Assembly (NCBI RefSeq): GCF_003334335.1
Contig: NZ_QOWQ01000005.1
Strand: one strand, 5' to 3'
Length of the DNA: 64,000 bases
DNA from: Escherichia coli
GTDB taxonomy: Bacteria; Pseudomonadota; Gammaproteobacteria; Enterobacterales; Enterobacteriaceae
Shown: piece after piece, positions 16,794 through 52,059 of the stretch
How the letters are laid out: every line of letters starts with the position of its first letter
Numbering within the stretch: the stretch's first letter is position 1
The notes under the pieces: generated by a model
What the model was told of the DNA's origin: nothing
The model's database searches: none
Seen by the model: the letters and a program-made list of their open reading frames with translations, nothing else
Made by a program: the position numbers and the translations under genes

Positions 16794-17072
16794 CGAAAAC
16801 AATCCCGTGGTAGCAAAGCGGGCATTTTAGCTGACCGAAAGAGAAAAGCAAACGTTTGCCACATCCTCATCTAAATATTTAAATGAGATAAATGCACTTT
16901 TTTATATAACTTTTGGTATTTTTCTGCTTAAAATCCATGCCATTTGTTCATTAACAGCTGAGAATTTGACCCAGGAAAGCATAACTCGATACCCGTCATA
17001 GTTCATGAAGTTGCCACTGCGCGATGAAGTATGACGAGTATGAAAGAGTGATGCGGATACAAAGGAGTAACT

Positions 17073-37519: not shown

Positions 37520-37557
37520 AGTATTCGGGTAGCTGTTGAGCCTGGGGCGGTAGCGTG
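37520..37557 (+). promoter_or_regulatory. JUMPstart element with ops site (RfaH-dependent antitermination) in the waaQ operon leader
   Basis: GGGTAGC...GGCGGTAGCGTG about 50 bp upstream of waaQ; the ops 12-mer is at 37546..37557. Confidence 0.75.
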
Positions 37558-41612: not shown

Positions 41613-42692
41613 ATGAAAATAGCCTTTATTGGCGAAGCTGTTTCTGGATTTGGCGGCATGGAAACAGTCATTCGTGATGTTATTACTACCTTCAGGCAAC
41701 AACATATCCAAAGTGAAATTTTTTTCTTTTGTCGTAATGACAAAATGGATAAGGGATGGCTGGAAGGTATTAAGTACTCGTGTTCATTTTCCAATATTCG
41801 CTTAGGTTTTTTGCGTCGCGCGAAACATATTCATGCTTTAAGCAAATGGCTTCATGATTATCAGCCAGATGTTGTTATTTGTATTGACGTGATCTCGTGT
41901 TTGTATGCGGCCAAAGCTCGTAAAAAATCGGGGATTGATGTACCTGTATTTTCATGGCCGCATTTTTCTTTAGATCATAAAAAACATGCCGAATATATCA
42001 CCTGTGCCGACTATCATTTAGCCATCAGCTCTGGTATTAAACAGCAAATGATTAGCCGGGGTGTACCAGAATCGACAATAAACGTTATTTTTAATCCCGT
42101 TGAGGCGAAAAATTCAGTCATTCCTGCACCCGGGGAAGGCGAAACGGCAACATTCATTTATGTTGGGCGCATGAAATTTGAAGGCCAAAAGCGCGTAAAA
42201 GATCTGCTTGATGGCTTATCACAAGTGCAAGGTGACTGGAAACTTCATGTATTGGGAGATGGCTCCGATTTCGAAAAATGCCAGGCTTATGGTAGAGGAT
42301 TAAATATTGATGATCGAATTGTCTGGTATGGTTGGCAACAACATCCCTGGAAATTAGTTCAGCAAGATATTAAAAAAGTGAGTGCATTATTACTCACGTC
42401 ATCTTTTGAAGGTTTCCCAATGACTCTACTTGAAGCCTTGTCGTGGGGGATCCCTTGTATCAGTGCAGATTGTGTCTCCGGGCCTGTTGATATCATTCAG
42501 CCTGATGTTAATGGTCATTTATATCAACCGGGGGATATGACCGGTTTTGTTGCTCTTCTCAATAAATACATAGCCGGTGAAATTCACATCGCACATGAAA
42601 AAATTCCGGCGTCGATCGATAAATTTTATCAACCGAAATATTACGACAGATTGCAAAAGATAATTATTTCTGTTATTTCCCGGAGGAAATAA
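41613..42692 (+). CDS. waaB: LPS core alpha-1,6-galactosyltransferase (GT4)
   Basis: 359-aa GT4 ORF; length and position match waaB. Confidence 0.8.
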   Translation: MKIAFIGEAVSGFGGMETVIRDVITTFRQQHIQSEIFFFCRNDKMDKGWLEGIKYSCSFSNIRLGFLRRAKHIHALSKWLHDYQPDVVICIDVISCLYAAKARKKSGIDVPVFSWPHFSLDHKKHAEYITCADYHLAISSGIKQQMISRGVPESTINVIFNPVEAKNSVIPAPGEGETATFIYVGRMKFEGQKRVKDLLDGLSQVQGDWKLHVLGDGSDFEKCQAYGRGLNIDDRIVWYGWQQHPWKLVQQDIKKVSALLLTSSFEGFPMTLLEALSWGIPCISADCVSGPVDIIQPDVNGHLYQPGDMTGFVALLNKYIAGEIHIAHEKIPASIDKFYQPKYYDRLQKIIISVISRRK

Positions 42693-43711
42693 TGCAGCAG
42701 GTTTTTTTCCAGGAGACTGAGTTTCTCAATTCGGTTATTGATTATAATCATAAAATAGAAGCAGAAAATCTTTGTCTGGATATTGCTTATGGGACTGACA
42801 AAAATTTTCTTTTTGGATGCGGAATATCGATTGCTTCAATATTAAAATATAATGAAGGAAATCAATTATGCTTTCATATTTTTACTGATTATTTCGGTGA
42901 TGACGATCGCAAATATTTTGATGCCCTGGCCAGGCAATATAAAACAAGAATTAAGATATATTTAATTAATGGTGATCGACTCCGTTCATTACCCTGCACC
43001 AAGAACTGGACTCATGCTATTTATTTTCGTTTTGTTATCGCCGATTACTTTTTTAATAAAGCACCCAAAGTTCTTTATCTGGATGCAGATATTATTTGTC
43101 AGGGAACTATAGAACCACTTATCAATTACACGTTTTCTGAACATACAGTCGCAATGGTTGTTACAGAAGGACAAAAAGACTGGTGGGCAAAACGTGCTCA
43201 TTCGTTAGGTGTTGCTGGGATTGCTAATGGTTACTTTAACTCCGGTTTTTTACTGATTAATACTAATCAATGGACGAATGAGCGGGTTTCTGCACGGGCC
43301 ATTGCAATGTTAAGTGATCCAGAGATAGTCAAAAAAATAACACATCCTGATCAGGATGTATTAAATATGTTATTGGCAGACAAACTTGTTTATGCTGATA
43401 TTAAATATAACACTCAGTTTAGTTTAAATTATCAACTAAAAGAAAGTTTTAAAAACCCAGTAACTAACGATACAGTTTTTATTCATTATATTGGTCCAAC
43501 TAAACCCTGGCATGACTGGGCCTGGGATTATCCAATATCACAAGCTTTTATGGCGGCAAAAAATGCTTCACCATGGAAGGATACTGCGTTATTGAAACCG
43601 GTTAATAGTAATCAATTAAGATACAGTGCTAAACATATGTTGAAAAAAAAGCAATATATCAAAGGATTTGGCAACTATCTTTTGTATTTTATAAAAAAGC
43701 TAAAGCATTAA
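42692..43711 (+). CDS. waaO: LPS outer-core GT8 glycosyltransferase (waaO/waaI type)
   Basis: 339 aa; GT8 motifs YLDADIIC and HYIGPTKPW; donor sugar specificity cannot be read from sequence. Confidence 0.7.
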   Translation: MQQVFFQETEFLNSVIDYNHKIEAENLCLDIAYGTDKNFLFGCGISIASILKYNEGNQLCFHIFTDYFGDDDRKYFDALARQYKTRIKIYLINGDRLRSLPCTKNWTHAIYFRFVIADYFFNKAPKVLYLDADIICQGTIEPLINYTFSEHTVAMVVTEGQKDWWAKRAHSLGVAGIANGYFNSGFLLINTNQWTNERVSARAIAMLSDPEIVKKITHPDQDVLNMLLADKLVYADIKYNTQFSLNYQLKESFKNPVTNDTVFIHYIGPTKPWHDWAWDYPISQAFMAAKNASPWKDTALLKPVNSNQLRYSAKHMLKKKQYIKGFGNYLLYFIKKLKH

Positions 43712-43779
43712 TACTGATAATCTATACTCTAAATAATTCGAGTTGCAGGACAAAAAGCCAGTGGCGTTTTGAGGAACGC

Positions 43780-43870
43780 TTGCGTTGGCCCTGAAATGCC
43801 GAGTAACTCGCCGATGCAGCACATGCAACTTGAAGTATAACGAGTATATAAAGTAATGATATAAGGATAG
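43780..43870 (+). repeat. possible ERIC-flank-like fragment in the waaO-waaJ spacer
   Basis: GCAGCACATGCAACTTGAAGTATAACGAGTATA resembles the flanking arm of the ERIC copy at 51001..51082; no 44-bp core present. Confidence 0.35.
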
Positions 43871-43874
43871 CCTT

Positions 43875-44891
43875 GTGAACTCATTTCCTGCCATAGAGAT
43901 AGATAAAGTTAAAGCCTGGGATTTTAGGCTTATTGATGAAAATACTGCTGAAAGTTTAAATGTTGCCTATGGTGTCGATTCCAATTATCTTGATGGTGTA
44001 GGTGTTTCCATTACTTCAATTGTCATTAATAATCGACATGTTAATCTTGATTTTTATATTATTGCTGATGTTTATAACGACGATTTCTTTCAAAAAGTTG
44101 AGAAACTTGCTGAGCAATACCAATTAAGAATCACACTTTATAGAATAAATACTGATAATCTTCAGTGCCTGCCTTGTACACAAGTCTGGTCAAGAGCAAT
44201 GTACTTCCGTTTATTTGCTTTTCAATTATTGGGAGTAACACTTAATCGTTTGCTTTATCTTGATGCCGATGTAGTTTGTAAGGGAAATATTAGTCAACTA
44301 TTGCATTTAGAGTTTAATGGAGCGGTGGCTGCAGTAGTCAGGGATGTAGACCCAATGCAGGAAAAGGCGGTAGTCAGATTATCTGATCCTGAACTTCGGG
44401 GGCAGTATTTTAATTCTGGTGTCGTTTACTTAGACCTAAAAAAATGGACAGAAGCAAAACTAACCGAAAAAGCACTGTCTATTCTTATGAGTAAAGATAG
44501 TATTTATAAGTATCCTGACCAGGACGTTATGAATGTCCTACTAAAAGGGATGACAATATTCCTGCCACGTGAGTTCAATACTATATATACAATAAAAAGT
44601 GAGTTAAAAGATAAAACGCATCAAAAATATAAAGAGTTGATAAAAGAGGATACTCTTCTTATTCATTATACTGGGGCCACCAAGCCGTGGCACAAATGGG
44701 CAATTTATCCATCGGTAAAATACTATAAAATAGCTTTAGAAAGATCCCCCTGGAAAGATGACTCACCACGAGATGCAAAATCAATTATTGAATTCAAAAA
44801 AAGATATAAACATCTGTTAGTGCAACATCATTATATCTCAGGACTCATTGCAGGAGTGTGTTATCTTTGCCGAAAATATTACCGTAAATAA
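43875..44891 (+). CDS. waaJ: LPS outer-core GT8 glycosyltransferase (waaJ/waaR type)
   Basis: 338 aa; GT8 motifs YLDADVVC and HYTGATKPW. Confidence 0.7.
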   Translation: MNSFPAIEIDKVKAWDFRLIDENTAESLNVAYGVDSNYLDGVGVSITSIVINNRHVNLDFYIIADVYNDDFFQKVEKLAEQYQLRITLYRINTDNLQCLPCTQVWSRAMYFRLFAFQLLGVTLNRLLYLDADVVCKGNISQLLHLEFNGAVAAVVRDVDPMQEKAVVRLSDPELRGQYFNSGVVYLDLKKWTEAKLTEKALSILMSKDSIYKYPDQDVMNVLLKGMTIFLPREFNTIYTIKSELKDKTHQKYKELIKEDTLLIHYTGATKPWHKWAIYPSVKYYKIALERSPWKDDSPRDAKSIIEFKKRYKHLLVQHHYISGLIAGVCYLCRKYYRK

Positions 44892-50999: not shown

Positions 51000-51000
51000 T

Positions 51001-51082
51001 CACTTCATCCTTCAAGCTGTCTCTGCGGCGGCTGCCTGCGTTCACTCCGGTCACTTACTTTTGTAAGCTCCCGGAGATTCAC
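51001..51082 (-). repeat. ERIC (IRU) repetitive element at the hldD/waaF junction
   Basis: Minus strand reads GTGAATCtCCgGGAGCTTACAaAAGTAAGTGACcGGaGTGAaCG, matching the ERIC core (ERIC1R and ERIC2 primer regions) at about 39 of 44 positions. Confidence 0.75.
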
Positions 51083-52059
51083 TTAGTTGCTGCCTTGATA
51101 CTGCTCGAATGATTTTGTGAATTTACGTTGATGTCGCGATTCAGCCAGGCCATGTATTCCGTTACGCCTTCGGCAACGGTTTTGAACGGTTTGTCATAAC
51201 CCGCCGCGCGCAGATTCGTCAGATCTGCCTGCGTGAATGCCTGATAGCGGCCTTTCAGTTTATCCGGGAACGGAATGTATTCGATCTGGCCTTTCTTGTG
51301 ATAAGCAAGCGTTGCATCGGCTACCGCCTGGAAGGATTCCGCACGACCAGTACCGAGGTTGAAGATGCCGGAAACGCCATTTTCCAGGAACCACAGGTTT
51401 ACATCTGCCACGTCGCCAACATAGACGAAGTCGCGTTTAAAGTTCTCGCTACCTTCGAACAGTTTCGGTGATTCACCGTTATTAAGCTGGGTGTTGAGAT
51501 GGAAAGCGACGCTCGCCATGCTGCCTTTATGGCCTTCACGCGGTCCATAAACGTTGAAATAACGGAAGCCAACAATCTGTGAGTTTGCTTCCGGCAGAAT
51601 TTGACGAACATATTCATCAAACAGGAATTTCGAGTAACCGTAGACGTTCAACGGTTTTTCGTACTCGCGGGATTCAATAAAGTCGGAAGTGCGACCGCCG
51701 TAAGTGGCTGCGGATGAAGCGTACAGGAACGGGATTTCACGCTCCAGGCAGTAGTGCAGCAGCTCCTTGGAGTATTGATAGTTGTTATCCATCATATACT
51801 TGCCGTCCCACTCGGTGGTGGAAGAGCACGCGCCTTCGTGGAAAATCGCTTCGACATCGCCGAACTCTTCGCCAGCCATAATCTGGATCAGGAAGTCTTC
51901 CTTATCCATATAGTCTGCGATATTCAGGTCCACCAGGTTCACAAACTTGGTGCCGTCTTTCAGGTTGTCCACCACCAGAATATCGGTGATGCCTTTGTCA
52001 TTCAGGGCTTTAACGATGTTGCTGCCGATAAAGCCCGCGCCGCCGGTAACGATGATCAT
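51079..52059 (-). CDS. hldD: ADP-L-glycero-D-manno-heptose 6-epimerase, with a variant C-terminal tail
   Basis: 326 aa; Rossmann motif [11 protein letters not shown]; after ...WLNRD the ORF continues [17 protein letters not shown] and its stop codon lies inside an ERIC repeat. Confidence 0.9.

Follow-up and report, generated by a model that had tools for sequence, protein, structure and literature searches.

The 163-bp spacer between the lipopolysaccharide (LPS) core genes waaO and rfaJ in the 64,000-nucleotide stretch of Escherichia coli DNA analysed here (the window) is very probably a 39-bp gap that was enlarged by the TA-duplicating insertion of an ERIC/IRU element. The inserted copy would derive from a composite ERIC, from which the core was deleted and in which a nested module then decayed, and it would be mainly a passenger, fixed together with its core type.

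Genomic setting and insertion site

The upstream gene is the glycosyltransferase gene waaO (42692–43711, plus strand, with its TAA stop codon at 43709–43711), present in the open reading frame list and matched by the NCBIfam model NF011718 with 572 bits (cut-off 461). Downstream lies its paralogue rfaJ (waaJ/waaR; 43875–44891, plus strand, with a GTG start codon), which scores, as a paralogue, 280 bits against the same model. Both names, waaO and rfaJ, are those used in the PGAP annotation of an identical record. The LPS core operon contained in the window consists of rfaQ, rfaG, rfaP, a GT8 gene, waaB, waaO, rfaJ, rfaY, waaZ and a GlcNAc transferase gene, the last of which scores 724 bits against the WaaK-type model NF012028. 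A WaaK-type gene at the end of the operon is taken by us to mark an R2-like cluster, so that the cluster would belong to an R2-like core type.

The sequence-only reading had placed the spacer at 43712–43874 and described it as 163 bp in length, unusually long and comparatively GC-rich. The coordinates and the length are correct, and the other nine gaps of the operon range from -8 to +71 bp. With regard to composition, the GC fraction of the spacer (0.411) is above that of waaO (0.336) and rfaJ (0.349), but the description is only weakly true, as 16% of the 163-bp windows across the low-GC part of the operon equal or exceed this value. The 126-bp element inside the spacer has a GC fraction of 0.452, reached by 5% of the windows, and its centre one of 0.547. 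The real anomaly of the spacer is its length; its composition is a mild anomaly, not unusual on its own.

Clusters of the K-12 type have the same genes in the same order, with a waaO–rfaJ spacer of 39 bp. Two of these were examined, one from a K-12-like strain (L002) and one (L001) from clusters that are 88% identical to the query, a group which includes ST131 strains. Where the empty site in K-12-type clusters reads aaacTAtaaagtaatg, the filled site in the window reads aatcTA[TACTC...GAGTA]TAtaaagtaatg; with more of the flanks included, ...cattaaaactgggaaacTAtaaagtaatgatataagggtagcattGTG corresponds to ...cattaatactgataatcTA[TACTC...GAGTA]TAtaaagtaatgatataaggatagccttGTG, the difference being exactly 124 bp, with TA duplicated. 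The ERIC-framed element thus delimited (43723–43848, plus strand) measures 126 bp including both TA dinucleotides, for a net insertion of 124 bp. To its left, a remnant of the ancestral spacer (43712–43722, plus strand; TACTGATAATC) is homologous to K-12 AACTGGGAAAC in the alignment of filled and empty sites; to its right, the other remnant (43849–43874, plus strand) bears the Shine-Dalgarno sequence of rfaJ, AAGGA (43863–43867), which is conserved in K-12-type clusters. The surrounding residues 43860–43877 read AAGGAUAGCCUUGUG in this cluster type, allowing a 4-bp AAGG/CCUU hairpin over the Shine-Dalgarno sequence, and AAGGGUAGCAUUGUG in K-12-type clusters, in which this hairpin is impossible.

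Duplication of TA is the signature of ERIC insertion reported in reviews. The earlier suggestion of a repeat remnant related to ERIC is correct; the repeat is a complete, TA-flanked, ERIC-framed insertion that is absent from the K-12-type waaO–rfaJ spacer: similarity to ERIC goes beyond chance, and the spacer is not the same in all waa cluster types, as that of the K-12 type lacks the insertion. The same reading had also proposed a recombination joint between outer-core gene cassettes, with the repeat as its mark. Dispersed repeats can act as substrates for recombination, and waa clusters are mosaic, with patches of 93% identity inside alleles that are otherwise 98–100% identical. However, the sliding identity to K-12-type clusters is about 0.80–0.93 on both sides and shows no step at the spacer, which speaks against a joint between cassettes; the genes stand in the same order, the insertion is cleanly flanked by TA and there is no second copy of the element in these genomes to serve as partner. 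The proposal is already largely refuted, and we consider it very improbable.

Anatomy and relatives of the element

The inserted element is composed of two ERIC ends and an unrelated centre. The left ERIC terminus (TATACTCTAAATAATTCGAGTTGCAGGA; 43723–43750, plus strand) matches SeRU-1, an ERIC sequence published from Salmonella (Delihas 2007, PMC2759123), in reverse complement and at 28 of 28 positions. The right ERIC arm (43808–43848, plus strand) starts with the ERIC-derived TCGCCGA and continues into the terminus TGCAGCACATGCAACTTGAAGTATAACGAGTATA (43815–43848), with 32 of 34 positions identical to SeRU-1. The likeness to ERIC is thus real and stronger than first noted, as both ends are present and not a single flank. 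Neither end recurs in the 64-kb window, and 100 shuffles gave no match to either. Residues 43723–43747 and 43824–43848 form a 25-nt imperfect inverted repeat, 80% complementary, its halves 76 nt apart. Between the ends lies a truncated TLR/RtT-type module (43749–43807, plus strand) of the C-type found nested in ERICs, recognised by its match to our covariance model R1 and by alignment to the modules of loci L004, L009 and L023.

The ERIC core was not found in the 64-nt centre of the element, the alignment of centre to core scoring -10 against a shuffle mean of -9.1. A site for primer ERIC2 with up to three mismatches is likewise absent from the spacer element, the only match in the window being in another ERIC copy, near 51 kb. 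The element's length of 126 bp is close to the approximately 127 bp of ERIC, but was reached via insertion and deletions, and the ERIC-like total is coincidental.

Two further ERIC remnants were observed in the window. The copy near 51 kb (approximately 51000–51095) is a truncated ERIC in which the core is kept and the ends are eroded; it fills the gap between the start of rfaF and the stop of rfaD in a minus-strand operon, and is the copy with whose flank the sequence-only reading had compared part of the spacer. The other, at 16978–17045, is a short palindromic remnant made up of two inverted copies of one ERIC end (GATACCCGTCATAGTTCATGAAGTTGC ... GCGATGAAGTATGACGAGTATG), consistent with internal deletion induced by palindromes, as proposed in the literature. 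A minus-strand open reading frame across the spacer (43700–43894, 64 amino acids) was rejected as a gene; it is the usual open frame through ERIC sequences, comparable to the 88-amino acid frame across the L023 element.

The ERIC, IRU or RU-1 sequences were reportedly described by Sharples and Lloyd in 1990 and by Hulton and colleagues in 1991. With these, the element has in common a size of about 127 bp, conserved termini, imperfect terminal inverted repeats, the TA duplication, a long RNA hairpin and an intergenic site inside an operon, in this case the waaO–rfaJ gap of the rfaQ operon, which has an ops element upstream. It differs in that the central inverted repeat, containing the ERIC-PCR primer sites (ERIC1R/ERIC2), is missing and an unrelated module is found instead; without these sites, ERIC-PCR should miss this copy. 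Deletion and insertion derivatives of ERIC are already known in general, and ERICs with internal insertions or deletions are said to have been treated by Sharp and Leach in 1996, by Cromie, Collins and Leach in 1997 and by Sharp in 1997. ERICs with internal insertions likewise contain nested modules at fixed internal sites, the window copy being of the site-C type. However, the window element keeps the insert while having lost the ERIC core, a form found at this one locus only. Judged by its sequence, it appears best filed as a deletion-and-insertion derivative of ERIC; it would not itself be a TLR, although its centre would be derived from a TLR-type module.

The R1 model matches the window copy at 43749–43846 with 27.6 bits (E-value 2.6e-6), the next best match in the 64 kb scoring 12.6 bits. 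Hairpins 1 and 2 of the module are recognisable, while hairpins 3 and 4 have been fused by the loss of 13 nt between AAGG repeats. One stem has point changes, with a broken pair in hairpin 1, and so has the conserved UUUGAAC joiner, which reads UUUGAGG. When the spacer with some flanking sequence (43600–43980) was compared with Rfam at E ≤ 10, neither RF00391 nor RF02902 gave a match, and only noise was obtained (a snoRNA, SAM-II and a weak match to V_AS5); the V_AS5 family is presumably a Vibrio ERIC copy.

Intact relatives of the centre occur inside other ERICs. In another E. coli strain, an ERIC-framed composite of 330 bp lies downstream of mnmH (L004). Of its three nested modules, two are similar to the window centre, with RF02902 scores of 31.4 and 25.5 bits (gathering score 39.8). 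Another composite, from E. albertii, is located downstream of a ubiV-like gene (L023). In canonical ERICs at E. coli loci, modules are located at site A, after GCGAGTGA (L006, L007), at site B, after GGGGTGAGCGA (L005, L007, L008), or at site C, after GCAGGA (L009, L004); nested modules are present in L005 to L009, L004, L023 and many copies from Yersinia, Serratia and Citrobacter. The window element corresponds to two pieces of the L023 and L004 composites, their leftmost 81 nt and their rightmost 51 nt, at 86–93% identity, the pieces overlapping by 6 nt at GCCGAG. Because its left and right pieces align to these two loci, the window copy can be described as a composite minus its interior, that is, minus the ERIC core and most of module B.

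The most probable course of events would start with a composite ERIC carrying nested four-hairpin modules of the TLR (RtT/RrB) kind. A small, non-autonomous mobile repeat of the ERIC/IRU class, with such a composite as its source copy, would have entered the 39-bp waaO–rfaJ gap at a TA, which was duplicated. Modules C and B have similar 3' ends (GCCGA(G/A)TAAC), and an internal deletion from one to the other would have removed the canonical ERIC core; a later 13-nt slip deletion between the AAGG repeats, together with the point changes, would have damaged the module that remained.

The four-hairpin module family

The seed alignment of the R1 model contains no E. coli TLR unit, although among its copies are a few tRNA-linked ones of other taxa (L010, L013, L031, L045 and L084). 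It matches all four annotated RtT sRNA units at K-12 tyrT (L131:22315–23099), with about 25 bits each, and the K-12 rrnB T1–T2 spacer (L132:18448–18522, minus strand), with 60.2 bits (E-value 6e-17). Because of these matches, the module is of the tRNA-linked-repeat (TLR) kind. A Serratia copy downstream of tRNA-Lys passes RF00391 (RtT) with 50.1 bits, and Neisseria-like copies pass RF02902 with 49.7 bits (gathering score 39.8).

A pattern scan of 100,044 species genomes yielded at least 120 loci, from which about 17 chance matches in coding-like sequence were discarded. In the MAFFT alignment of 71 distinct copies, four hairpins are formed by 21 pairs, 14 of them with compensatory changes. Paired cells make up 96.8% of the alignment, against 30–42% when the partners are slid, and covariation scores 0.504, compared with 0.078 at most; none of 500 shuffles reached it. 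As copies were selected on hairpin 1 only, hairpins 2 to 4 provide an unbiased test of covariation.

TLRs have been on record since 1978, and we know of no agreed function for them. According to the passages on TLRs in Stenum et al. (2021, PMC8144298), there are 22 copies in K-12, each ending in 18–19 nt that match the 3' terminus of the tRNA or 5S RNA upstream. The TLRs (RtT, RF00391, at tyrT, and RrA, RrB and RrF after 5S) have the module GACAAA-hp1-UUUGAAC-hp2-G-hp3-(U/C)GAG-hp4-CGA(G/A)UA, in which hp1 to hp4 are the four hairpins and of which the window element shows hairpins 1 and 2 recognisably. However, they are located in tRNA and rRNA operons and end in the 18–19-nt 3' copy, while the window copy is truncated and lies inside ERIC ends in an LPS operon. 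A tRNA- or 5S-like 3' tail was not found on the window module, which is followed directly by the right ERIC arm. The consensus structure of the Rfam family RF02902 (AaHKsRNA22, Aggregatibacter sRNA 22) is this same module, and intact ERIC-nested copies score 25–31 bits against it; its Pasteurellaceae and Neisseria copies adjoin uptake-signal sequences and not ERIC, and the window copy does not match it at E ≤ 10.

The surroundings of the module have one feature in common. Where the module stands alone, it interrupts an incomplete copy of either the tRNA T-arm (GGTTCGA|module|ATCC...CCA) or the 3' end of 5S (GAGTAGGA|module|AACTGCCAGGCAT). It forms the core of the rrnB T1–T2 spacer (RrB) and of the RtT units, and there the interrupted sequence, at GA|A, is part of a 3' end copied from 5S or from tRNA-Tyr. 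The GA|A junction is present in every context examined: the three ERIC sites, GGTTCGA|ATCC, TAGGGA|ACTGCC and the Neisseria uptake sequence TCTGA|A.

Other settings of the module were also observed. On three Neisseria-like contigs (L091–L093) it is located between inverted DNA-uptake sequences (atgccgtctGA|CAAAAGCC...ttcagacggcat), and in the RF02902 consensus it comes after the USS-like GTGCGGT. In the metagenome-assembled genome (MAG) Proteobacteria bacterium CTSoil_132 (L047–L057) and in Edwardsiella hoshinae (L078), the module is found close to one end of a longer non-coding repeat (cattaggctattttatttgccattttgg...cagtgctcac|ACAAAATG...GTACTGCGTGTACGCTCCGGTTGTTGCGCG...), which is present in multiple copies and often lies where a contig ends. 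No transposase was found beside the CTSoil_132 repeat in L052, nor did any Rfam family match at the gathering threshold.

We tentatively propose, as a reading that falls somewhat short of probable, that the ERIC "insertions", the TLRs (RtT and RrB) and AaHKsRNA22 form one family, defined by a covarying module of about 75 nt and spread across Proteobacteria and at least one non-proteobacterial MAG, that the GA|A pattern points to a single site-specific insertion process and perhaps to a common origin of ERIC and TLR, and that the window copy is a decayed by-product of it. A statement linking ERIC inserts with TLRs was not found in the TLR passages of PMC8144298; the link between ERIC inserts, TLRs and RF02902 may be new.

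Membership in this family raises the possibility that the centre of the window element is a working TLR-like sRNA or protein-binding module, released from the operon transcript and bound for instance by Hfq or CsrA, as RrB. It does belong to the same family as RtT and RrB, and binding of RrA, RrB and RrF to Hfq and CsrA in vitro is reported in the part of PMC8144298 that deals with TLRs. Such a role is nevertheless most unlikely for the window copy, because it has no separate hairpins 3 and 4, no GGA in the hairpin loops and no tRNA- or rRNA-like 3' end, and because the models RF00391 and RF02902 both fail to match it even at E ≤ 10; in addition, its joiner is mutated (UUUGAGG) and a pair of hairpin 1 is broken. 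In most B-type and TLR-type copies, the loops of hairpins 1 and 4 contain GGA (cGGGAg and aUGGAu), resembling CsrA-binding hairpins; the C-type copies, including that in the window, lack GGA in both loops.

Distribution, transcription and possible role

The regions flanking the element are at least 90% identical in 505 of 5,426 complete E. coli genomes, and the centre of the element is present in about 496 of the 5,426, once per genome. The sampled matches to the centre that were checked are all at the waaO–rfaJ locus, except one (H70), which is weak and partial and belongs to the related composite ERIC in L004. With at least 496 carriers in about 505, the element is all but fixed in this cluster type, while K-12 types lack it. 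Strains of this core type include F632 and 481 near-identical genomes.

The allele of strain 32F4 (L003:1476–1601) differs from the window copy (43723–43848) at 11 of 126 element positions (8.7%), against 5 of 675 positions (0.7%) in the flanks. It keeps the family consensus at several positions where the window copy has changed: in the latter, hairpin 1 has A in place of C, the joiner UUUGAAC has become UUUGAGG and the fused hairpin has U in place of G. From these sequences, the changes in the window copy look like decay or patchy conversion rather than conservation; the contrast between element and flanks may be due to ectopic conversion, a recombination patch or fast decay.

Upstream of rfaQ, the window contains an ops element (the JUMPStart core, GGCGGTAGCGTG; 37546–37557, plus strand), the only match where 0.05 were expected by chance. 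The ops element and RfaH lead to read-through of the whole operon as one unit. As ops is located upstream of rfaQ, the spacer would be transcribed by RfaH-modified polymerase, in the sense orientation of both the ERIC (the Wilson–Sharp orientation) and the module. Going by Delihas (2007) and by what is generally known of the orientation classes A and B, the copy, which runs in the Wilson–Sharp orientation, opposite to the one bearing the open reading frame, probably belongs to class "A". The 126-nt sense RNA of the element has a predicted folding energy of -41.8 kcal/mol (z-score -3.98 against shuffles), in which the ERIC ends pair as the outer stem; folding of the antisense strand is weaker (z-score -2.32). 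The stem starts 11 nt past the stop codon of waaO and ends 14 nt before the Shine-Dalgarno sequence of rfaJ. Co-transcribed with the RfaH-dependent operon, the element is thus predicted to pair its ends into a long stem between the waaO stop codon and the rfaJ ribosome-binding site.

An internal promoter driving rfaJ and the genes downstream of it, another suggestion of the sequence-only reading, found no support in the sequence. A sigma-70-like match (TTAATA-18-AATAAT, 43708–43737) agrees with 9 of 12 consensus positions and is the only match to touch the spacer, and the ERIC ends are AT-rich. Against this, the region contains 6 matches where shuffles contain 3.6 ± 1.8, which is at chance level; the candidate has a poor -35 hexamer and sits at the edge of the element; and an operon with ops upstream of rfaQ is, by established knowledge, read through as one unit. 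K-12-type clusters, moreover, do without the sequence. A promoter here is very doubtful, and the same scan of the spacer region detected no terminator-like site.

If the element has any effect, it would most likely be that of other intercistronic hairpins, acting as a barrier to 3'-to-5' exonucleases or as an RNase entry site and so uncoupling the upstream half of the transcript from the downstream half in stability. According to reviews, ERICs alter the stability of flanking transcripts in an orientation-dependent manner, as in Yersinia mRNAs. A role as processing site, which the earlier reading had also mentioned, is possible by analogy with these ERIC hairpins. REP/BIME and Correia/NEMIS sequences are likewise palindromic repeats between genes of operons, co-transcribed and able to alter mRNA decay through RNase E, RNase III or an exonuclease barrier; however, their sequences are unrelated to the window element, and some of their copies have a demonstrated functional effect, such as the window copy may have.

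A stronger claim would be that the hairpin is under selection as an intercistronic RNA element, setting the relative stability or processing of the waaQ–waaO and rfaJ–waaK segments of the mRNA as reported for Yersinia ERICs and REP. The near-fixation of the element in its cluster type could reflect selection and not hitch-hiking, but for a single insertion in one cluster lineage, fixation would be expected anyway. Its stable sense fold, better than that of shuffles and of the antisense strand, its placement between the waaO stop codon and the rfaJ Shine-Dalgarno sequence, and the orientation-dependent effects reviewed for ERICs all agree with selection. The state of the copy does not: it is decaying, with stem and joiner mutations and deletions, and differs from the 32F4 allele far more than its flanks do. 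Furthermore, K-12-type clusters of identical gene order manage without it. We therefore regard selection as unlikely, though less so than a promoter, a cassette joint or a working TLR-like RNA, and favour the reading that the element is mainly a passenger, which would have been fixed along with this core type.

An ERIC-framed insertion explains the odd waa spacer, and a promoter or a cassette joint is no longer needed to account for it. The TA-flanked insertion of 124 bp is a simple marker that tags one core-type lineage. Beyond this locus, the centre of the window repeat ties the ERIC "insertions" to the tRNA- and rRNA-linked repeats and, if one insertion process explains all contexts, it would become possible to test how two long-known classes of enterobacterial repeats arose and how they move.
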